From assembly GCA_026188615.1 (NCBI GenBank), contig GCA_026188615.1_4525.1: a stretch of DNA of 64,000 nt. One strand, given 5' to 3'. The notes under the pieces are model-generated. The model had not been told where the DNA came from. It saw only the letters and a list, made by a program, of their open reading frames with translations, and did not search any database. The translations under genes were made by a program, and so were the position numbers. Positions within the stretch are counted from its first letter, which is position 1. Each line of letters starts with the position of its first letter. The DNA is from a phage. Positions 2,671-27,113 of the stretch are shown one piece after another.

Positions 2671-3339
2671 TTATTTTAATGTTACGAAAGAAGAATTACG
2701 AGTTTCACGAATTAGAACTGATCCATCGCGATTAATATAATAAATTAAGCTAAATAATGTTTGGTGAGCAGAAGCATGCACAAAACTAGTTGGGCGAGAT
2801 TTCCAATCTGGGGTTTCGGCTATCCATTGATAAATCCACCAAGGAACAGTAACATATCCTGGGCCTTTGCCTAATTTAATGAGTGTAGGACTAAAATTTT
2901 CAGGCAGAACAAATTTTACTTCTTTATTTACCTCTGGTTCAGGCTCTTTTTCGGATTCAACAATCTGAGTAATTGCTTCTTCGAATTTATCATGGTCGAA
3001 TTCTTTTTCTTGTTCGACAACTTCTAATACTTCAACTTGTTCTGTTGGAGAATCAAACAACAGAATAGCTTCTTCTTTAACTTCTTCGTTGGTGAAATTA
3101 ACACCGTCCACATCATCTGCGGCAGTAATTAAATCGGTGATAGATAATCCATCAGTTTCAGGTAATGGTTCATCAGCCAGTGCGTTAAGAGCTTCTTCGA
3201 TATCAATAACAATATTATCGAATGATTTTGTTTTCTTAACACTAATGCCAAATTGTTCCGCATATTCAAACAGTTTAGCTTTGGCTTCCTTTTTATCAGA
3301 AAGAGCACGTAACTCTTCAATATAGTCTTTATCGATCAT
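2671..3339 (-). CDS. inh: Acidic protein, 222 aa; positional equivalent of T4 inh (prohead protease inhibitor)
   Basis: Position between hoc and uvsW, size and acidic composition match T4 Inh; sequence identity not verified. Confidence 0.45.
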   Translation of the reverse strand: MIDKDYIEELRALSDKKEAKAKLFEYAEQFGISVKKTKSFDNIVIDIEEALNALADEPLPETDGLSITDLITAADDVDGVNFTNEEVKEEAILLFDSPTEQVEVLEVVEQEKEFDHDKFEEAITQIVESEKEPEPEVNKEVKFVLPENFSPTLIKLGKGPGYVTVPWWIYQWIAETPDWKSRPTSFVHASAHQTLFSLIYYINRDGSVLIRETRNSSFVTLK

Positions 3340-3389: not shown

Positions 3390-4904
3390 ATGACTGACAT
3401 TAAAGTACATTTTCATGATTTTAGTCACGTTCGCATTGAATGCGACGAAAGTACGTTTTACGAACTTCGTGACTTTTTTAGCTTTGAAGCTGACGGGTAT
3501 AAATTTAACCCAAAATATCGCTATGGGCAATGGGATGGTAGAATTCGACTTTTAGATTACAATCGTTTGTTACCATATGGACTTGTAGGACAAATAAAAA
3601 AGTTCTGTAACAATATGAGTTATTCTGTATGGATTGACCCTAAAATCTTTGAGACTGAAGACCTTACCAGGGAAGATTTTGACGCATGGCTTTCTAAACA
3701 AGAAATTTATTCTGGCAACGCCAAAATTGAACCACATTGGTATCAAAAAGATGCAGTATATGAAGGACTAGTTAATCGTCGTCGAATTTTAAACCTTCCA
3801 ACATCAGCAGGTAAATCACTAATCCAAGCACTTTTAGCTCGGTATTATCTAGAGAACTATGAAGGTAAAATTCTCATTATCGTCCCTACAACAGCATTGA
3901 CAACCCAGATGGCTAATGATTTTGTTGATTATCGCTTGTTTAGTCATTCGATGATTAAGAAAATTGGCGGTGGTGCTGATAAAGCGGACAAATCTAAAAA
4001 CGACGCTCCAATTATTGTTGGCACATGGCAAACGGTAGTTAAGCAGCCTAAAGAATGGTTCTCTCAGTTCGGTATGATGATGAACGATGAATGTCACTTA
4101 GCAACAGGCAAAAGTATTTCTTCAATCATCTCAGGATTAAATAATTGCATGTTTAAATTCGGTTTATCTGGCTCATTAAGAGACGGAAAAGCCAATGTAA
4201 TGCAGTACGTAGGCATGTTCGGCGAAATCTTCCGTCCTGTTAGCACGTCTAAATTAATGGAAGACGGACAGGTAACTGAGCTTAAGATTAATAGTATTTT
4301 CCTTCGTTATCCGGACGAATTCACCGTTAAATTAAAAGGTAAAACATACCAAGAAGAAGTTAAAATTATTACCGGACTAAAACGTCGTACAAAGTGGATT
4401 GCTCAACTTTCGGTCAAATTGGCTAAGAAAGACGAGAACGCCTTTGTAATGTTTAAACACGTTACACACGGTAAAGAAATATTTGAAGCTATTAAAGAGC
4501 TTGGATACGAAAAAGTTTATTACGTATCAGGTGAAGTTGATACTGAAACACGTAACGCGCTTAAAGTCATGGCAGAAAATGGTAAAGGCATTATTATTGT
4601 CGCATCATATGGAGTATTCTCTACTGGTATTTCAGTCAAGAATCTTCATCATGTTATTTTTGCCCATGGTGTTAAATCAAAAATTATCGTACTTCAAACA
4701 GTAGGTCGTGTGCTTCGTAAGCACGGTTCTAAAGCTGTTGCTACAGTTTGGGATCTCATCGATGACGCAGGTGTAAAACCTAAATCATTAAATACTAAAA
4801 AGAAGTATACTCATCTTAATTACTTGTTAAAACACGGTATTGATCGTATCCAGCGTTACGCTGATGAGAAATTTAACTATGTAATGAAAACAATTAATTT
4901 ATAA
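3390..4904 (+). CDS. uvsW: UvsW, SF2 RNA-DNA/DNA helicase
   Basis: 504 aa; Walker A (LPTSAGKS), DExH (MNDECH) and further helicase motifs; near-colinear with T4 UvsW. Confidence 0.9.
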   Translation: MTDIKVHFHDFSHVRIECDESTFYELRDFFSFEADGYKFNPKYRYGQWDGRIRLLDYNRLLPYGLVGQIKKFCNNMSYSVWIDPKIFETEDLTREDFDAWLSKQEIYSGNAKIEPHWYQKDAVYEGLVNRRRILNLPTSAGKSLIQALLARYYLENYEGKILIIVPTTALTTQMANDFVDYRLFSHSMIKKIGGGADKADKSKNDAPIIVGTWQTVVKQPKEWFSQFGMMMNDECHLATGKSISSIISGLNNCMFKFGLSGSLRDGKANVMQYVGMFGEIFRPVSTSKLMEDGQVTELKINSIFLRYPDEFTVKLKGKTYQEEVKIITGLKRRTKWIAQLSVKLAKKDENAFVMFKHVTHGKEIFEAIKELGYEKVYYVSGEVDTETRNALKVMAENGKGIIIVASYGVFSTGISVKNLHHVIFAHGVKSKIIVLQTVGRVLRKHGSKAVATVWDLIDDAGVKPKSLNTKKKYTHLNYLLKHGIDRIQRYADEKFNYVMKTINL

Positions 4905-5420: not shown

Positions 5421-5645
5421 TTATACCACTCGCATGCACATATCGATACCCATATCTTTTGTATAAAAATACTCGTCGATGTACCCGGCAAACTTCCCTT
5501 TAATATAAAGGACGTCTTCGCCACAAGGATGGTCTGCCAGGATACGAATATCCTGACGACGTAGACGATACTTTTCCATTAAGAATTTAATTTCAGTTTC
5601 AAATTCTTCGTCATTATTAAAGGCATCTTCAATTGAATAACGCAT
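5421..5645 (-). CDS. Hypothetical protein, 74 aa (uvsY.-1 position)
   Basis: ORF in track; start overlaps the uvsY stop. Confidence 0.5.
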   Translation of the reverse strand: MRYSIEDAFNNDEEFETEIKFLMEKYRLRRQDIRILADHPCGEDVLYIKGKFAGYIDEYFYTKDMGIDMCMRVV

Positions 5646-6058
5646 TATTGCCCCGCTTCAAATTCTCGCATATCCTGGATATGTTTAAGTGCAAAACTAC
5701 GAGACTTAACTGCGTCAAGTGCACCACTACAGAACTCAAGTAAAATTCCCCAGTATTGTAAAGTAGTCTCTATTTTAAGCACATCTTTATCTGCAGCCAG
5801 GACAGTTTTCATTTCAGATTTCTCGTATCGGTCCATACTGAATTCATCCCCATCACCTCGTCCCGAGTAGTAGTCTAATCTTGCTTTTAGAGCAGTTTTC
5901 TTCTGAGTCTCTATACGCAACATTTCTTTACGAATAAATGAGTGCTTACGTAGCCATTTGCTGTATAACTTAACATTATTCGCTGTCTCATATTGCAACT
6001 TTGTCGTATCAATAGCTAAGTCTGCGTCTAACTCTTCCTGTAAATCTTCCAGCTTCAT
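5645..6058 (-). CDS. uvsY: UvsY recombination mediator, 137 aa
   Basis: The track ORF starts at 6139, but the conserved protein begins MKLEDLQEEL at ATG 6058; KARLDYYSGRGDGDEFSMDRYEKSEMK is the UvsY signature; the upstream part of the track ORF overlaps gene 25. Confidence 0.85.
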   Translation of the reverse strand: MKLEDLQEELDADLAIDTTKLQYETANNVKLYSKWLRKHSFIRKEMLRIETQKKTALKARLDYYSGRGDGDEFSMDRYEKSEMKTVLAADKDVLKIETTLQYWGILLEFCSGALDAVKSRSFALKHIQDMREFEAGQ

Positions 6059-6113
6059 AATGTTCTCTCTTTTAACTAATAATCTCCCGGCTGTATCGGA
6101 AGGACCTAAAACC

Positions 6114-6138
6114 ATTATACATAGGTTGCCTTGAAGCA
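6114..6138 (-). promoter_or_regulatory. Middle (MotA-dependent) promoter for uvsY
   Basis: On the minus strand aaTGCTTCA (MotA box), 12 bp, TATAAT; matches the T4 middle-promoter architecture. Confidence 0.5.
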
Positions 6139-6537
6139 TTACACTCTATTGCTTGATGCTAACTGAAGTTTGATTTGTTCGATATCATCAGGGTTATCTA
6201 CGACCGAAAATCTAATCTCTACTATAACTGTATAGTCATCATATACTGGCGTTACACTTACAGAAAGTTTGTCGATGCGCGGCTCATAGTTACGGACGGC
6301 TGCCTGGATATTACGCTCAATCGTATCGGCTGTAAGTGGTGTCATGTTCTCGAAAAGTTCGTCGACCAAATCGCACCCAAATTCAGGGTCGAAGGGGCGT
6401 GAGCCTTTTCTAGTTGTCACTATGCCAAGAAGACTATTTTTAATAGAACGAAGTCCTACAGAACGAGCAACGTCCTTGTTCCAATCCATACGCATTTCTG
6501 GGTCGATATCTGAATAAAGTTTATTGATATTAGACAT
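6139..6537 (-). CDS. 25: gp25 baseplate wedge protein (lysozyme-like fold)
   Basis: 132 aa; near-colinear with T4 gp25 (MSNINKLYSDIDPEM...IEQIKLQLASSNRV). Confidence 0.85.
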   Translation of the reverse strand: MSNINKLYSDIDPEMRMDWNKDVARSVGLRSIKNSLLGIVTTRKGSRPFDPEFGCDLVDELFENMTPLTADTIERNIQAAVRNYEPRIDKLSVSVTPVYDDYTVIVEIRFSVVDNPDDIEQIKLQLASSNRV

Positions 6538-20769: not shown

Positions 20770-21138
20770 TTATGCAACTTTAATCCAATTGTCTAAATTT
20801 AAAACACCTTTGGCTTTCATTTTTTCGATCAGGTTATCTGCTGTAATGCGTCCATTTTGATACCATGTAACATCTTCAGAGTAACCAGTTTCTTCGTCAA
20901 CATATGTTTCTGAACGAATTTTACCGGTAATAATAGTTTTTAATTCATATGTGTCACCTGTGAAAAAGTTTGCTAACACAATTTTCCAAGAGAAATCATC
21001 TGAAGGACCTTCAGGGGTCATACAACCTACGAACTCAAATTGCTCTTTGTATAACATCCACTGGAATTCTTTAATTTCGATAGCTTTATAACCGTCGTGG
21101 TCTTTACATTTGATGTATGAGTTCAGATTGATTTTCAT
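20770..21138 (-). CDS. Hypothetical protein, 122 aa
   Basis: ORF in track. Confidence 0.5.
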   Translation of the reverse strand: MKINLNSYIKCKDHDGYKAIEIKEFQWMLYKEQFEFVGCMTPEGPSDDFSWKIVLANFFTGDTYELKTIITGKIRSETYVDEETGYSEDVTWYQNGRITADNLIEKMKAKGVLNLDNWIKVA

Positions 21139-21180
21139 TTTGTTCTCCGGTTTGTTTTATCGATTAGGTGGTACAAGTCT

Positions 21181-21209
21181 ATAGTAACACATCCTACAGG
21201 AGAGTAAAC
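21181..21209 (-). promoter_or_regulatory. Early-promoter cassette
   Basis: Minus strand GTTTAC, 17 bp, TACTAT. Confidence 0.45.
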
Positions 21210-21240
21210 ATCTTTTTTAAACTTTTTCTGCCCTAAACGC

Positions 21241-21264
21241 ACAAAAGGGAGACCGAAGTCTCCC
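21241..21264 (-). terminator. Intrinsic terminator gggagac-UUCG-gtctccc plus U-run
   Basis: 7-bp GC-rich stem; the same hairpin sequence recurs at 38345..38362. Confidence 0.6.
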
Positions 21265-21269
21265 TAAAA

Positions 21270-21449
21270 TTATGCAACAACCTTTCCAAAACGAGAAGCA
21301 TCATCTCGAAGAACTGCACGTGCTCTGCGCATGATCTTCTCAACTGTTTGATTAATACGAGAGTTCGACCCACGCTTGTATCCAGCGCGTTTAGAGGTAC
21401 CATCAACTTTCTTTTCAACTGCTTTCTTTGCTTTAGCTTGTTTTGCCAT
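21270..21449 (-). CDS. Small basic protein, 59 aa (MAKQAKAKKAVEKK...RFGKVVA)
   Basis: Not in the ORF track (under 60 aa); translated by hand; followed immediately by the terminator; preceded by 260 bp of non-coding sequence. Confidence 0.4.
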   Translation of the reverse strand: MAKQAKAKKAVEKKVDGTSKRAGYKRGSNSRINQTVEKIMRRARAVLRDDASRFGKVVA

Positions 21450-21712
21450 TATAAATTCTCTTTAAATGAAAATGCAGGACTTATTGACATTGCCTGCGCA
21501 AGCCCTCAAGGGGAACATAGGTTTTGGATATTTAACGACAGGATAACCATAAACCCGTCATCATACCAACCACGACTTAGACAGATAACCTTTTTCTGAC
21601 GCGTGATAGTACAAAATACATTCAAGAGGTACACCGTAAAACTGCCGGGGACTTAAAACTATAATGATTCGCAAATCATTAATCAGACAGTTCGACGGCT
21701 CCTCGATTTAAC

Positions 21713-21961
21713 TTACTTTAGGGTAATAACAAAATGACGTACTGCTTTACGAGCTGCAGAAGCCAAAGGCTTAGCATATTTCAGTTCATCTTTTGCTTCC
21801 AGTTCAGAGGCCAAAGCTGCCTGGACCGGGTTCAGATGTTTGAAATATCGCAGGATTTCAAGAGCTTCGGCTTCAACATCGATAGATGCGCCATAGTTTT
21901 CGTGACCATTATTCCATGCGTTACGTTGCAGTTCAAGAGCGTGTTGTAATTGTTTAATCAT
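21713..21961 (-). CDS. rIII: rIII-like lysis-inhibition accessory protein, 82 aa
   Basis: 82 aa as T4 rIII; position next to gene 31. Confidence 0.55.
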   Translation of the reverse strand: MIKQLQHALELQRNAWNNGHENYGASIDVEAEALEILRYFKHLNPVQAALASELEAKDELKYAKPLASAARKAVRHFVITLK

Positions 21962-22077
21962 TTTAAATTCTCAATTCGAGATAATATTTAGTAGCCACGT
22001 TCGTCTGAATTTCACCTTCTTTCGACAAGTCTCTCAGTTGTAGGCTACCGCTTAGAAGAGTGTTCTCTTCATATAGT

Positions 22078-22085
22078 TATTTATA
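22078..22085 (-). promoter_or_regulatory. Candidate late promoter (TATAAATA on the minus strand) upstream of rIII
   Basis: Plus strand reads TATTTATA; could be a chance AT-rich match. Confidence 0.3.
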
Positions 22086-22418
22086 TCACTTATAAAGACA
22101 CGGAATAGCTTTATAATGGCATGTTACGAATTTCTGTTTAATTTCTTTAGGTTGTTTAAGTCCCAAAGCCACAAATGGATGTGGAACATTTCGAATTTGT
22201 CCAACTGGTAGTGGAGTCAAATCACCGACTTCAACAAAACCTTCAGGAACATCAGGACCTACAGAATGAACTACACATAGTTCAGGAACTTCACCTTGAA
22301 CACGTTTACCAATCACAAGTCCTGATTCGGTAACTTCTTCATCACCTGCTTGAGCGGGTTCAGAAACCAGAATGACATATTCACCAACAGCACGAATTGG
22401 GAGTTGTACTTCAGACAT
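22086..22418 (-). CDS. 31: gp31 co-chaperonin (GroES analogue)
   Basis: 110 aa; near-colinear with T4 gp31 ([21 protein letters not shown]...KAIPCLYK). Confidence 0.85.
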
Positions 22419-22438
22419 CTTATTTCCTTGTTGTTTGA

Positions 22439-22463
22439 CGATAGATTAATAATACCATACTAT
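22439..22463 (-). promoter_or_regulatory. Middle promoter for gene 31 (MotA box TGCTTTA, 12 bp, TATTAT)
   Basis: Motif and spacing read on the minus strand. Confidence 0.45.
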
Positions 22464-22475
22464 TCGTAAAGCATA

Positions 22476-22784
22476 TTACATAAGAAGCAAACGTTCTACC
22501 GGAGTACCATCAACCGAAATTACTTTATCAAGGCGGAAAGAACGCCACTGACCTAACTTGGTATCGAATGCTCGAACTGATTCACGAGGTTCAGAACGAA
22601 CTTCTGTTGCCGGATTGTTATTTTCATATTTGACTTCAAGTTCATCGCGAGAAGCAAACATAGTGCGTACCTCACCGTTAGCCTTTTCAAATACAACACA
22701 ATGAACGCCTACAGACAGAATAGTTTTAATACGTTCACGAAGAACCATAGTCTCTTGTTCAGTTAAAATCATATTATTCACCAC
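22476..22784 (-). CDS. Hypothetical protein, 102 aa (31.1 position)
   Basis: ORF in track. Confidence 0.5.
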   Translation of the reverse strand: MVNNMILTEQETMVLRERIKTILSVGVHCVVFEKANGEVRTMFASRDELEVKYENNNPATEVRSEPRESVRAFDTKLGQWRSFRLDKVISVDGTPVERLLLM

Positions 22785-23355
22785 AAAAGTTTCGGATTTG
22801 TTCCCAATTCAGAGAACGAAGATTATTACGAGAGTACTGAATTACTTCAATACCGGCTTGTTTTAGAATGTCTGCCCAATTTTCAGGAGATCTGTCATAT
22901 AATTCTGCGTATACAACCTTTTTAATACCTGACTGTGTAATAGCTTTAGTGCAATCAGGACACGGAGAAAGCGTCGTATATAACGTAGCACCTTCAATAG
23001 AATTACCTTTACGAGCTGCAAACAAAATTGCATTCAATTCAGCATGGATTTCGTTATTAGCAGACCATGCACTATGAGCGGCCCGATGTTCTTTAGCCAA
23101 AACAAAATTATCCACCCGTCCAAATGCTGTAGTGCCTTCTTTATGCCCAGCAACGATGACCGGGCTTGGTTTATTCTTCAACCAACCGTTTTCGGATGCA
23201 TGTTCGCAACAGTTTGTACCACCTGAAGGAGAGCCATTATAACCTGTAGAAATAATGCGTCCATCTTTTTCAATGACGGCGCCAACTTTCCATGAACAAC
23301 ATTTTGATTCTTGAGAAATCAGATATGCAATCTGAAGGTATGTGCTAGCTTTCAT
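22774..23355 (-). CDS. cd: dCMP deaminase
   Basis: 193 aa; zinc-binding HAE ... PCPDC cytidine/deoxycytidylate deaminase signature. Confidence 0.85.
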   Translation of the reverse strand: MKASTYLQIAYLISQESKCCSWKVGAVIEKDGRIISTGYNGSPSGGTNCCEHASENGWLKNKPSPVIVAGHKEGTTAFGRVDNFVLAKEHRAAHSAWSANNEIHAELNAILFAARKGNSIEGATLYTTLSPCPDCTKAITQSGIKKVVYAELYDRSPENWADILKQAGIEVIQYSRNNLRSLNWEQIRNFCGE

Positions 23356-24347
23356 TATTGAACCTTATTAATATAAGTTAACAGCTCTTTAGTTTGTTCC
23401 CAACTGATGCACGCATCGGTAACGGAAACGCCATAGGACATATTATCAGAAATTTTTTGATTTCCTTCATGTAGGAACGATTCTATCATAATTCCTTTGA
23501 CCAAATCATTAGCTGCTAAATTTTTACCAATACCAATTTGATTGCTATAATGCCCATCAGCGTTTGCATGGCTACAGTCAACCATTACATAATGATTCAG
23601 ACCTACTGCCCTTGCTTTGTTAGAAGCTTCTTGAATATCAGAAGAATGATAGTTCGGGCCGTTGGTCCCGCCACGCAATACGATATGCGTATTCTGATTA
23701 CCTTCAGCTTCAACAATGCCTACAGTACCATCGACGTCCATACCCATATACCGATGAGGCCAGGCGGCACTATACATCGCGTCTGTAGCTACTTTAATAG
23801 AACCATTGGTTGCGTTCTTGAAGCCTACGCACATCGGTAGACCTGAAGCAATTTCACGATGTGTCTGACTTTCAGTCGTACGGGCGCCAATAGCAACCCA
23901 TGAGAAAATACCAGAAAGATACTTAATCGTGAATGGGTCTAATACTTCAGTTGCTAATGGAAGTCCCATACGTAGAAGTTTACGACACAATGTTCGTGCA
24001 ACTATAAGACCGTGGTTCATATCAAAACTTCCGTCAAGATATGGATCATTTACAAGACCTTTCCAACCTACGGTAGTTCGAGGCTTTTCAAAATAAACGC
24101 GCATCACTAACAGAACATTAGGAAGACGAGTTTGAAGTTCAGCCAGGCGTTTGCCGTATTCAACAGCAGCAATAGGGTCATGAATTGAACAAGGACCTAC
24201 AACGATAAGTTTGCGTGGGTCTTCACCATTCATAATCGAATTAACTTGTTCGCGATGAGAAGCCACTTGTGATGCGTAAGCTTCCGACAAAGGAATAATC
24301 TCAGCCAGTTCTTTTGGAGAAATAAGTTTTCCGACGACAGGTAACAT
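23355..24347 (-). CDS. Class I 3-deoxy-D-arabino-heptulosonate-7-phosphate (DAHP) synthase, AroG/F/H-like
   Basis: 330 aa; motifs GPCSIHD, VMRVYFEKPRTTVGWKGL, GARTTESQTHRE, VGFKN, LRGG, EGNQ, SVTDACISW; stop codon overlaps the cd ATG (TAATG). Confidence 0.85.
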   Translation of the reverse strand: MLPVVGKLISPKELAEIIPLSEAYASQVASHREQVNSIMNGEDPRKLIVVGPCSIHDPIAAVEYGKRLAELQTRLPNVLLVMRVYFEKPRTTVGWKGLVNDPYLDGSFDMNHGLIVARTLCRKLLRMGLPLATEVLDPFTIKYLSGIFSWVAIGARTTESQTHREIASGLPMCVGFKNATNGSIKVATDAMYSAAWPHRYMGMDVDGTVGIVEAEGNQNTHIVLRGGTNGPNYHSSDIQEASNKARAVGLNHYVMVDCSHANADGHYSNQIGIGKNLAANDLVKGIMIESFLHEGNQKISDNMSYGVSVTDACISWEQTKELLTYINKVQ

Positions 24348-24355
24348 AACAATCC

Positions 24356-24544
24356 TTAGGAGATATAAACAGATTCTGATTCAACAATACCTTTAACCGG
24401 ATTAGACAGGCTAAGTTGGTAGTGCTCAGATTTATGACCATTCTCGATAGTAATGAGAGCTATCTCATTATAGTGTTCCATATACTCGAGTTGCTTCAAC
24501 AAGACCATCACTGCATAATTTAAGATTAGTAATTTGGTCACCAT
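24356..24544 (-). CDS. Hypothetical protein, 62 aa (start uncertain)
   Basis: ORF in track; overlaps the next ORF, so the true start is probably internal. Confidence 0.3.
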   Translation of the reverse strand: MVTKLLILNYAVMVLLKQLEYMEHYNEIALITIENGHKSEHYQLSLSNPVKGIVESESVYIS

Positions 24545-24704
24545 CTTTAGGATTAACGATTATGAGAAAAGAACGTGGAGATTCTTGAATAACTCGTAAT
24601 GTTGCATCTTGGAAACGTTCAGACACTTTATTGATGAGTGCTTGAGCAAATTCTTTTACTTTAATCTGAAATTCGTGTACTGTAATTGGGTTTTCACTTA
24701 GCAT
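24468..24704 (-). CDS. Hypothetical protein, 78 aa
   Basis: ORF in track; first gene after an early-promoter cassette. Confidence 0.45.
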   Translation of the reverse strand: MLSENPITVHEFQIKVKEFAQALINKVSERFQDATLRVIQESPRSFLIIVNPKDGDQITNLKLCSDGLVEATRVYGTL

Positions 24705-24732
24705 TTCTATTTCCTCATTTGTTGGTAGAGTT

Positions 24733-24762
24733 ATAGTATCACAACTCCACCATGTTGTAAAC
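24733..24762 (-). promoter_or_regulatory. Early-promoter cassette
   Basis: Minus strand GTTTAC, 18 bp, TACTAT. Confidence 0.45.
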
Positions 24763-24764
24763 CA

Positions 24765-25040
24765 TTAAATTGCTTTGCATTCAATTTTTTGTGTACCGAA
24801 ATTGATATCACATTGGATAACTAAATCGCCGTCAAGATCAAATACCACGATGACGTGTGCAGACCCAGGGAGAAGAGTAATAGCAATAGAATCTACTTGG
24901 TCTGGGAGCAAAGCATTGAGTACATGAGTTACTTGAGCATGAACTCTGAGTTCGGCTGCGTTATCAAGCACTTCAAACATATTATTAGCAATAATCTGAC
25001 TGAAGACTACCTTTACAATTTCAGAATAAGTTGGGAACAT
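24765..25040 (-). CDS. Hypothetical protein, 91 aa
   Basis: ORF in track. Confidence 0.45.
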   Translation of the reverse strand: MFPTYSEIVKVVFSQIIANNMFEVLDNAAELRVHAQVTHVLNALLPDQVDSIAITLLPGSAHVIVVFDLDGDLVIQCDINFGTQKIECKAI

Positions 25041-25047
25041 AATTACC

Positions 25048-25272
25048 TCAGTGCACAGTATTTACTTTAACTCGAACAACAAATCGCTCGGTTGGTTCAC
25101 CTACAGGAACAAACTCTACATGATATTCACCTTTGTAACGAGTATTCAGATCATTACGAATTCCTGCGAGTTTGTTGATTAATGTAGGACTCATATTAAG
25201 TCCCACTAGTTTACGAAGCATTTTGTATGCTTCATCTTCGATTTCATGATGTTTATCGTACATAGTTTTCAT
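25048..25272 (-). CDS. Hypothetical protein, 74 aa
   Basis: ORF in track. Confidence 0.45.
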   Translation of the reverse strand: MKTMYDKHHEIEDEAYKMLRKLVGLNMSPTLINKLAGIRNDLNTRYKGEYHVEFVPVGEPTERFVVRVKVNTVH

Positions 25273-25444
25273 TTAACCATTCAATTGCCTGGTCGACGTT
25301 ATCAAATATACCGCCGTCCAAACGTTCTTCATGCTCATAGTCCAGCACATCAATACCGAACTGTCCATTTACTAAAGGCCAGGCAACAAACAAATATTCT
25401 TTATGCTGTTCGATGGCCTCAATCACTTCATATAATCGTTTCAT
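25253..25444 (-). CDS. Hypothetical protein, 63 aa
   Basis: ORF in track. Confidence 0.45.
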   Translation of the reverse strand: MKRLYEVIEAIEQHKEYLFVAWPLVNGQFGIDVLDYEHEERLDGGIFDNVDQAIEWLNENYVR

Positions 25445-26531
<1,087 letters not shown>

Positions 26532-26532
<1 letters not shown>

Positions 26533-26831
26533 TATTTGATTCCTAAGAAAGCTTCAAGAATACGAATGTTGAGTTCGCGCCGGTCTTTATTAATTTCAGC
26601 AACGTTTTTATTAATTGACGTACTTCTAACGTTTGAAGAAATAAATTTAATCATATGACTTTTGAGTTGTTGCAAATCCAACCCTTTTTCTTTAGCAGCT
26701 TTACGAAGAGCTTTACCTGCTTCATCTAGTGCCTTTGCTGCATCTTTGTCATAATCTACAAGTGTCATTCCACGGCAGATATCAATATACTCATCAGACC
26801 GTTTGATGTAATTCTCTAGTAATGTTTTCAT
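26532..26831 (-). CDS. Hypothetical protein, 99 aa
   Basis: ORF in track. Confidence 0.45.
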
Positions 26832-26859
26832 TTAGATTTCCTCAATTATCCATAGGAGC

Positions 26860-26889
26860 ATTATACTCTGCTCCCGAGAGTTTGTAAAC
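26860..26889 (-). promoter_or_regulatory. Early-promoter cassette (GTTTAC, 18 bp, TATAAT), near-identical to the one at 57289..57318
   Basis: agcattatactctgctcccgagagtttgtaaac here versus agcattatactctgctctcaagagtttgtacaa there. Confidence 0.5.
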
Positions 26890-27113
26890 TATTTTACTAA
26901 AGATTCAATATACTCATGAAGAGCTTTAGTCGCTACTGCCCACTTATTCTGATATTCATTTTTCAGATTAGCACGAGACTGAACTAACAAGCGGTCATTA
27001 GTCGGAGGCAAAGATTCTAATCGTTGAATCTGGCGTCCATAAATCATAGCCGCCATTTCAGATTCATAGATAAGCCCTTTAATGTATTCATGCTGTTCTT
27101 TAGTCATTGGCAT
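26889..27113 (-). CDS. Hypothetical protein, 74 aa
   Basis: ORF in track. Confidence 0.45.
   Translation of the reverse strand: MPMTKEQHEYIKGLIYESEMAAMIYGRQIQRLESLPPTNDRLLVQSRANLKNEYQNKWAVATKALHEYIESLVK

Follow-up and report, generated by a model that had tools for sequence, protein, structure and literature searches.

Whether the DAHP synthase gene lying in the pseT-cd region of this T4-like coliphage encodes a competent enzyme, and what such an enzyme could offer a lytic phage, are the questions raised by this locus. Herein, the gene, its product, and its surroundings were analyzed computationally in the window, that is, the whole stretch of 64,000 nucleotides, and compared with phage and cellular homologues.

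Identity, fold, and active site of the phage enzyme

The gene occupies positions 23355..24347 on the minus strand, starts with ATG, and encodes 330 amino acids followed by a stop codon. The preliminary description of this DNA had recognized a class I DAHP synthase by its conserved motifs. Every motif quoted there is present in the ORF, and profile searches bore out the assignment with scores well above the curated cut-offs. The protein matched PF00793 of Pfam (E=5e-75; 252.3 bits against a cut-off of 25.5) and, in NCBIfam, both the aroFGH equivalog TIGR00034 (427.7 bits against 173.2) and the generic subfamily model NF009395 (455.1 bits against 343). The scores for NF006723 (AroG equivalog, 363 against 568) and NF009396 (AroH, 386 against 463) were below the cut-offs, and there was no AroF-specific model among the NCBIfam output for this protein. 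The best solved match was the Tyr-sensitive AroF of E. coli (6AGM, E=5e-105).

The metal ligands Cys61, His268, Glu302, and Asp326 (AroG numbering, as in all positions below) were invariant in all 129 tabulated sequences, including the 31 of the phage clade. These 31 sequences all carried R92, K97, R99, T100, G163, A164, R165, K186, and R234, the residues for PEP and erythrose-4-phosphate (E4P) that include the KPRT motif. The AF2 model of the window protein reached a pLDDT of 89.8 and a pTM of 0.90, and Foldseek aligned it with the DAH7PS structures of Neisseria meningitidis and E. coli at TM scores of 0.93-0.95, indicating a superposable (beta/alpha)8 barrel. Structure prediction and residue mapping were thus in agreement with the first assignment, with a matching fold and a complete set of ligands. 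From the ORF, profiles, catalytic residues, and model, the product is a type I-alpha, AroF-like DAHP synthase in which all metal and substrate ligands are kept, and it is predicted to be competent to form DAHP from PEP and erythrose-4-phosphate.

Two other interpretations of the ORF were rejected. KDO8P synthase (KdsA), with a role in lipopolysaccharide, was considered because lipopolysaccharide is mentioned in PMC8022965; the two enzymes share a Pfam clan. NCBIfam gave DAHP synthase models alone at E<=0.001, the motif present was KPRT and not KANRS, and all PDB matches were DAHP synthases. An upstream start that would lengthen the N-terminus was also dismissed, as there is no earlier in-frame start and the aligned start is the same in all genera, right after the upstream gene.

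Locus architecture and expression signals

Immediately downstream lies cd, encoding a dCMP deaminase of 193 aa (22774..23355, minus strand; PF00383, E=1.7e-26), which is collinear with T4 cd. The TAA stop codon of the DAHP synthase gene (23357..23355) and the ATG of cd (23355..23353) overlap in the sequence TAATG (23353..23357, minus strand), confirming the overlap reported in the preliminary description, and AAGG at 23366..23363 precedes the cd start. A Shine-Dalgarno sequence, AAGGA, could be read at 24353..24357 (minus strand), 5 nt before the ATG of the DAHP synthase gene. Farther upstream is the resident, RB69-like cd.2 (DUF7320; 24468..24704, minus strand; PF24005, E=7e-35), which sits in a segment 97% identical to RB69 and is the first gene of the transcription unit.

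A sigma-70-type early promoter (TTTACA-17-TACTAT with an upstream TG) was located at 24733..24761 on the minus strand, where an early-promoter cassette had been noted before. It is the homologue of T4 Pe133295, which the T4 record annotates between cd.2 and cd.3, and the window site aligns with the T4 cd.3-cd.2 intergenic region. The assignment is based on this homology and not on the statistical scan, in which 13 promoter-like sites were counted in the region compared with 15.3 in shuffles, indicating no enrichment. Between this promoter and cd, the minus strand showed no terminator-like site.

The genes flanking the DAHP synthase gene are cd, pseT, and gp31. The gene order is cd.2-cd.1-cd in T4 and cd.2-cd in RB69, and the DAHP synthase gene is absent from the slot in both, consistent with the earlier remark that canonical T4 lacks it in the pseT-cd block. 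In RB69, cd.2 overlaps cd in the same way, so that the insertion left intact a coupling junction that was already there. These sequence signals suggest that the gene is expressed and may be translationally coupled to cd.

Insertion relative to RB69 and distribution among T4-like phages

Alignment with RB69 by blastn covered positions 21055-23358 at 95% and 24465-27000 at 97% identity, and the matching RB69 segments shared 7 bp. Relative to RB69, the DAHP synthase gene lies in a clean 1,106-bp indel (23359..24464, minus strand) between ATAATGA repeats. The indel also contains a noncoding remnant of a foreign cd.2 (DUF7320), derived from its 3′ third, at 24348..24464 (minus strand), which came with the DAHP synthase gene. 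A 62-aa ORF covering it matched DUF7320 (E=5e-5), and its translation up to the stop codon, EIALITIENGHKSEHYQLSLSNPVKGIVESESVYIS, can be aligned with the C-terminal ends of the cd.2 homologues lying ahead of the DAHP synthase gene in other genera.

The preliminary description had presented the gene as unexpected in a T-even-like phage. This implied novelty did not hold, as the gene is already annotated in more than 200 phage genomes. The window shares 99.5% identity with Mosigvirus KAW3E185, and an identical protein is named aroF, AroG, or DAHP synthase in many Mosigvirus GenBank/RefSeq records. Within this genus, the ORF is intact in ~140 records and the gene is absent from ~11, RB69 among them, indicating a presence/absence polymorphism; JK36 and moha are likewise without it. 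A survey of T4-like genomes revealed that six genera beyond Mosigvirus, including Kanagawavirus, Kagamiyamavirus, Marfavirus, Winklervirus, and Bragavirus, have homologues at this very slot, which lies between cd.2 and cd.1/cd. In some genera, a cd.1 homologue or homing endonuclease genes are retained between the DAHP synthase gene and cd, and homing endonuclease genes flank the DAHP synthase gene in Klebsiella phage EI and Proteus phage PM2. The best reading of these data is that the gene is an accessory cassette that recombination in the pseT-cd region passes from one T4-like phage to another.

Annotated carriers include PhAPEC2, JS09, phiC120, Shf125875, and the O157 typing phages, the Kanagawavirus PEi20, Entb_45, and KLB31, as well as EcS1, Klebsiella EI, Serratia X20, and Proteus PM2. 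Their proteins are identical or 58-77% identical to the window protein and share the slot, the short N-terminus, and the pocket signature described below. There is no difference of substance, and the window represents another Mosigvirus with the common allele. The gene is mentioned in the genome paper of phiC120, whose protein is identical (PMC8022965), and in that of Klebsiella phage KLB31 (PMC11845039); literature searches for an enzyme assay, expression, or phenotype of a phage DAHP synthase gave such genome-description mentions only. Since the presence of the gene is known at the annotation level, no new kind of system is revealed. More distant matches came from Aeromonas phage HJ05 (38% identity), faecal contigs, and Acinetobacter phage MAG contigs.

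The inhibitor site is altered throughout the phage clade

In AroG-type enzymes, the adjacent subunit supplies part of the inhibitor pocket through its N-terminal segment. In each of the 31 phage-clade proteins, the AroG-P19 column is preceded by just 8-12 residues, compared with 16-53 in 98 cellular homologues, and equivalents of AroG residues 2-9 are missing from all 31. The substitutions S180P and F209Y were found in 31 of 31 and P150I in 30 of 31, the exception being P0022, which keeps Pro; position Q151 is occupied by Lys in 30 proteins and by Arg in one. The window protein carries I, K, P, and Y at P150, Q151, S180, and F209, respectively. By comparison, Q151 is conserved in each of the 98 closest cellular homologues, S180 and F209 are each conserved in all but one, and none of the 98 has the N-terminal and pocket changes of the phage clade.

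The phage protein belongs to the same type I-alpha family as E. coli AroF (6AGM/6AGL), AroG, and AroH, with identical metal and PEP/E4P ligands and a common TIM-barrel fold (TM 0.94). Unlike these enzymes, whose AroG and AroH equivalog cut-offs it does not reach, it carries the four pocket replacements, is 20-26 residues shorter, lacks the first ~8-9 residues, and has deletions of 5 and 3 residues near the C-terminus.

AroG P150L is fully Phe-resistant, and S180F, F209A, and F209S are resistant; Q151/Q152 and S180/S181 contact the main chain of the inhibitor (PMC9529685). A literature search for the AroF N8K N-terminal mutant gave no match. Engineered or selected resistant enzymes, such as AroG P150L, S180F, F209A, and D146N, and AroF-fbr, are used in aromatic amino acid production. 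Positions 150, 180, and 209 are changed in the phage enzyme too, its N-terminus is affected, and the same unregulated carbon entry is predicted. However, the changes in the phage enzyme arose in nature, occur together, and are ancient; their effect is a predicted one, and the replacement residues (Ile, Lys, Pro, and Tyr) differ from those of characterized resistance mutations (Leu, Phe, and Ala/Ser). Lys at 151 could still bind the carboxylate of the inhibitor.

The notion that the pocket signature is unprecedented family-wide was rejected. Among 154 diverse family members (50%-cluster representatives), many pockets were noncanonical, Q151 being present in only 57% and S180 in 65%, and the five-residue combination alone is clade-specific. 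Since noncanonical pockets are common in these members, the deviation by itself is no proof of deregulation. The near invariance of the pocket across the clade fits retained function better than simple decay. As inhibitor-site residues are replaced, the phage enzyme probably runs regardless of host feedback control by aromatic amino acids. The preliminary description had raised the possibility of escape from host feedback; the loss of the N-terminal segment and the replacement of four pocket residues lend it in silico support, and the insensitivity itself is what we infer from them.

These changes also bear on the view that the gene encodes an ordinary Tyr-sensitive AroF-type isozyme, as labelled in many GenBank records, which would add enzyme dosage after host shut-off while still being under aromatic feedback. 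Consistent with this view are the match to AroF as the best solved structure, the score for NF009395 above its cut-off, the retention of D146, AroF-P148, G178, and L179, and the presence at 211 of the Gly typical of Tyr-type enzymes. However, the lost N-terminal segment and P150I, Q151K, S180P, and F209Y fall on inhibitor-contact or resistance positions, and the changes occur in 0 of the 98 closest cellular homologues, making such an isozyme unlikely.

Alternatively, the pocket may have been re-tooled for another effector, such as prephenate, chorismate, or an arylpyruvate, which have no alpha-amino group, or a phage-specific metabolite. The derived residues are almost invariant although clade members are only 55-77% identical, and the loss of acidic N-terminal residues together with the gain of Lys alters the pocket charge. 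However, this idea is speculative, and the pocket segments may be constrained because they adjoin substrate-binding loops (GARTTESQ and GFKN); we regard re-tooling as rather improbable.

An old phage lineage under purifying selection

The window protein is ~54% identical to E. coli AroF and 47% to AroH in the pairwise view, and 47% to AroG in the multiple alignment. The closest cellular homologues are only 52-55% identical to the phage proteins. The phage clade was monophyletic in 100 of 100 NJ bootstraps and branched outside all sampled cellular sequences. About 6,100 family members were found, and the "LDPFTIE" proteins P0163 and P0196 are leads to the lineage from which the clade arose. The GC3 of the gene is 0.30, close to the phage mean of 0.287, compared with 0.50-0.57 for E. 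coli aroFGH, so that codon composition, a point raised in the preliminary description, proved phage-like. Recent capture from an E. coli host was rejected on the grounds of the low identity to AroF/G/H and to the closest cellular homologues, the GC3 mismatch, and the monophyly of the phage clade.

The dN/dS ratio was 0.10 within Mosigvirus and 0.145 for Entb_45 against PEi20 (dS 0.71), with an overall range of 0.10-0.23, and all catalytic residues are retained over divergence with saturated dS. These results show that the gene is under purifying selection in an old phage-specific lineage. It is a host-type enzyme gene in a bona fide phage genome that evolves as a phage gene, as expected of a phage auxiliary metabolic gene.

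The same data weigh on the possibility that the gene simply travels along in the hyperplastic pseT-cd region as a passenger, bringing no benefit to the phage and spread by recombination or by homing-endonuclease-driven co-conversion. The polymorphism within Mosigvirus, the homing endonuclease genes adjoining it in phages EI and PM2, and the recombination scar left by the cd.2 remnant would all suit a passenger. However, the low dN/dS, the complete catalytic residues despite saturated dS, the fully phage-like composition, and the ORF remaining intact in ~140 Mosigvirus records and six other genera make it quite improbable. For the Enterobacterales T4-like phages as a group, we consider it an even call that they share an old DAHP synthase lineage whose feedback site was rebuilt and then fixed by selection, the enzyme being either deregulated or responsive to a new effector.

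Proposed role in infection

We somewhat favor the interpretation that the gene, carried on a cassette moving among T4-like phages, encodes an early-expressed, deregulated DAHP synthase feeding the host shikimate pathway. Transcription, shared with cd.2 and cd, would start at the T4-type early promoter, translation would use the gene's own Shine-Dalgarno sequence, and the enzyme would condense PEP and erythrose-4-phosphate into DAHP. With the aromatic amino acid site dismantled or remodelled, the enzyme would most likely stay active at levels of Phe, Tyr, or Trp that stop the host isozymes AroG, AroF, and AroH. As the phage stops host gene expression, the aro genes of the cell could no longer be derepressed. 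With the phage enzyme, carbon could then enter the shikimate pathway in larger amounts and uncoupled from end-product control, the other six enzymes being supplied by the host. The phage might gain extra chorismate for the aromatic amino acids of its proteins and perhaps for folate or other cofactors made from chorismate. We infer the expression timing, the feedback insensitivity, the product that matters, and the benefit, which would have to arise from one added enzyme of a seven-step pathway within a ~25-minute infection.

A non-shikimate use, in which the enzyme would drain PEP or erythrose-4-phosphate to redirect central carbon flux, or make DAHP or a different sugar acid for some product specific to the phage, is very improbable. 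The neighbours cd and pseT belong to nucleotide metabolism, and Mosigviruses carry an unusual arabinosyl-hmC DNA modification (PMC6024577). However, RB69 is so modified yet lacks the gene, which led us to reject that link; the KPRT motif and the equivalog score indicate standard DAHP chemistry, and the neighbouring genes include none that evidently encodes a partner enzyme.

Among the classical examples of phage auxiliary metabolic genes are those for the nucleotide-metabolism enzymes of T4 and the cyanophage genes psbA and talC. Like these, the DAHP synthase gene gives a lytic phage a host-type enzyme for a flux-controlling step; unlike them, it targets amino acid and chorismate synthesis rather than nucleotides or photosynthesis, and its role here is predicted from sequence. 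If the deregulated shikimate role is correct, these phages uncouple host aromatic and chorismate synthesis from end-product control, an amino acid pathway counterpart to the T-even takeover of nucleotide synthesis, and the enzyme would be a natural feedback-resistant DAHP synthase for metabolic engineering. The "Tyr-sensitive" label spreading through GenBank would need correction if the enzyme is deaf to feedback. Since RB69-like phages without the gene have near-identical relatives that carry it, matched natural controls exist.

Identity of the phage protein

The DAHP synthase (DAHPS) gene occupies 23355..24347 on the minus strand, starts with ATG and comprises 330 codons. The preliminary description, made from the sequence alone, was borne out in its overall reading: the open reading frame and all the DAHPS motifs that it listed were found in the translation, the TAA stop codon and the ATG of cd overlap by one base (TAATG, 23357..23353), and dCMP deaminase (PF00383, E=1.7e-26) is encoded immediately downstream. 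A cd.2/DUF7320 protein (E=7e-35) is encoded on the upstream side. AAGGA lies 5 nt 5' of the DAHPS ATG, and AAGG precedes the cd start.

In profile searches, the protein matched Pfam DAHP_synth_1 (E=5e-75), the NCBIfam aroFGH equivalog TIGR00034 (427.7 bits, cut-off 173.2) and the subfamily NF009395 (455 bits, cut-off 343), while its scores fell below the cut-offs of the AroG- and AroH-specific NCBIfam models. The top solved relative was the Tyr-sensitive AroF of E. coli (6AGM, E=5e-105), with the N. meningitidis, Francisella and E. coli AroG enzymes next in rank. When the protein was aligned with E. coli AroG, AroF and AroH and six phage homologues, the metal ligands C61, H268, E302 and D326 (AroG numbering) were invariant, as were the PEP/E4P-binding residues R92, K97-P98-R99-T100, G163, A164, R165, K186 and R234. 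An AlphaFold2 model built from a 49-sequence alignment (pLDDT 89.8, pTM 0.90) matched solved type I-alpha DAH7PS structures with TM values of 0.93-0.95. Profiles, alignment and structure all agree that the protein belongs to the type I-alpha DAHP synthases and that its active site is intact; on its profile hits and KPRT motif, it is not a KDO8P synthase. The enzyme is very probably active.

Insertion of the cassette into an RB69-like backbone

The window belongs to a Mosigvirus; over 6 kb it shares 99.5% identity with Escherichia phage vB_EcoM_KAW3E185. The gene is absent from RB69 (NC_004928, type Mosigvirus), in which the order is cd.2|cd, and from T4, which reads cd.2-cd.1-cd, in line with the first reading of canonical T4. 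Identity to RB69 is 95% up to 23358 and 97% from 24465, and the 1,106 bp between these positions form a clean indel with both junctions on the heptamer ATAATGA. The insert opens with 117 bp (24348..24464, minus strand) that are no mere spacer: they translate as EIALITIENGHKSEHYQLSLSNPVKGIVESESVYIS*, which matches the C-terminal third of cd.2 homologues located ahead of DAHPS in other genera. From this cd.2 (DUF7320) 3' remnant it follows that another T4-like phage donated the cassette along with the tail of its own cd.2. The remnant is a recombination scar of cassette entry into an RB69-like backbone, and joining took place at a microhomology that recreated the TAATG coupling junction with cd. 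The remnant stems from the 3' end of a second, divergent cd.2, lies between the resident cd.2 and DAHPS, out of frame with the former, and is overlapped by a mechanical ORF (24356..24544).

The gene is present in about 140 Mosigvirus records, and the site is empty in about 11, including RB69, JK36, JK42, moha, ECO111 5-P and mar005P1. The mar005P1/mar005p1 records conflict, since OZ035759.1 has the DAHPS gene and LR027383-LR027391 have an empty cd.2|cd junction; distinct phages may share the name, or the records may represent variants within a population. RB69 cd (5640..6252 of the RB69 locus) is annotated as 169 aa, whereas cd of the window (22774..23355) and of T4 encode 193 aa. On translation, RB69 cd shifts frame briefly close to the C-terminus (ADILKPSWY*) and then returns to frame, which reflects either an error in sequencing or a genuine truncation in RB69.

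Distribution and evolutionary status

Homologues at 58-77% identity share the slot, always between cd.2 and cd.1/cd, in Kanagawavirus (Entb_45, PEi20), Kagamiyamavirus (EcS1), Marfavirus (Klebsiella EI), Winklervirus (Serratia X20) and Bragavirus (Proteus PM2). DAHPS and cd are separated by a homologue of T4 cd.1 (30-39% identity) in EcS1 (L004 3983..4318), X20 (L006 3998..4339) and PM2 (L007 3957..4232), which places the DAHPS slot precisely between cd.2 and cd.1; neither the window nor the Kanagawavirus phages have cd.1. In EI (L005 1481..2075 and 4010..4548) and PM2 (L007 1606..2322), DAHPS is flanked by homing endonuclease genes of the Seg-like and MobE-like types, several of which are fragmented, and endonuclease-driven co-conversion could help to spread the cassette among T4-like phages.

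A tblastn search with the protein matched 213 phage records, 101 of them at ≥99% identity. The gene is already known: over 200 phage genomes have it annotated and two genome papers mention it, and the novelty implied for this auxiliary metabolic gene does not hold. ORF 64 of phiC120, mentioned in its genome paper, is the identical protein (PMC8022965), and an aromatic amino acid role as an auxiliary metabolic gene was proposed for the homologue of Klebsiella phage KLB31 (PMC11845039). Our literature search found no experimental characterisation of a phage DAHPS. GenBank labels vary, 'DAHP synthetase' being one of them, and even the identical protein appears as 'aroF, Tyr-sensitive', 'AroG', 'DHAP synthase class 1', 'putative aldolase' and 'hypothetical protein'.

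Neighbour-joining of 129 aligned sequences placed the 31 phage-type proteins in a single split in 100/100 bootstraps. Identity to the nearest cellular proteins reaches only 52-55%, and these include proteins of unrelated phyla besides enterobacterial AroF. The GC3 of the gene (0.30) is phage-like (phage gene average 0.287 +/- 0.049), unlike that of E. coli aroF, aroG and aroH (0.50-0.57). The dN/dS was 0.10 within Mosigvirus, 0.145 for one pair with unsaturated dS and 0.15-0.23 between genera. The phage split, low cellular identity, phage-like GC3 and low dN/dS rule out a fresh host fragment; the gene has long resided in T4-like genomes and is under purifying selection. Some cellular family members, P0121 (799 aa) and P0123 (730 aa), have a duplicated DAHP synthase stretch or represent long fusions.

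Predicted loss of feedback inhibition

The N-termini of the phage-clade proteins are 8-9 residues shorter than those of the E. coli enzymes, and L2 of the window protein aligns with I10 of AroG and I11 of AroF. In the AroG-Phe structure, N-terminal D6 and D7 of the neighbouring subunit presumably complete the inhibitor site, and N-terminal mutants of AroF are Tyr-insensitive. In the pocket, D146-M-I-T-P150-Q151 of AroG is replaced by D-P-F-T-I-K(or R) in 30 of the 31 phage-clade proteins; S180 has become Pro and F209 has become Tyr in every one of the 31. Among the 98 closest cellular homologues, Q151 is kept in all, and S180 and F209 with one exception each. AroG P150L is fully Phe-resistant, S180F, F209A and F209S are resistant, and Q151/Q152 and S180/S181 touch the main chain of the bound inhibitor (PMC9529685).

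The N-terminal loss together with the pocket changes predicts feedback escape, as first proposed, and makes the 'Tyr-sensitive' label probably wrong and carried over by similarity. Our confidence in insensitivity to aromatic amino acids is moderate. The natural replacements, however, differ from the characterised resistance substitutions. Non-canonical residues are also frequent among 154 diverse 50%-cluster family representatives (Q151 57%, S180 65%, P180 15%), against which only the five-residue combination I-K-P-Y-G (positions 150, 151, 180, 209 and 211) is unique to the phage protein. The pocket is invariant while the clade is only 55-77% identical, and it could be a re-tooled site rather than a dead one.

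The exception in the pocket is P0022 (D-P-Y-T-P-K), an intermediate metagenomic protein of 332 aa on a 7-kb contig with a short N-terminus, K151, P180, Y209 and Pro at 150, which may have branched off early in the phage clade. The motif 'LDPFTIE' of two homologues, P0163 and P0196, resembles the phage 'LDPFTIK', and these might be nearer to the source lineage.

Expression and possible role

The early-promoter cassette of the preliminary description corresponds to a promoter-like site at 24761..24733 on the minus strand (TTTACA-17-TACTAT with TG). This site alone is statistically unremarkable, but it aligns base for base with the T4 cd.3-cd.2 intergenic region (L014 about 2763..2834), where the T4 record annotates the early promoter Pe133295. 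No terminator-like site was found on the minus strand between the promoter site and cd. Given this homology and the uninterrupted strand, cd.2, DAHPS and cd are likely co-transcribed early. The intergenic promoter is near-identical base for base in the window, RB69 and T4.

Because the phage blocks host transcription, the infected cell would be unable to derepress its aro genes, and the pre-existing host DAHP synthases would be throttled by feedback whenever the cell contains aromatic amino acids. A phage DAHP synthase that is expressed early and is insensitive would relieve this block at the committed step, and host AroB through AroC would carry the flux on as far as chorismate. The phage would probably gain aromatic amino acids for making its proteins, with a possible contribution to chorismate-derived cofactors. 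As a functional clue, the location beside cd is at most suggestive.
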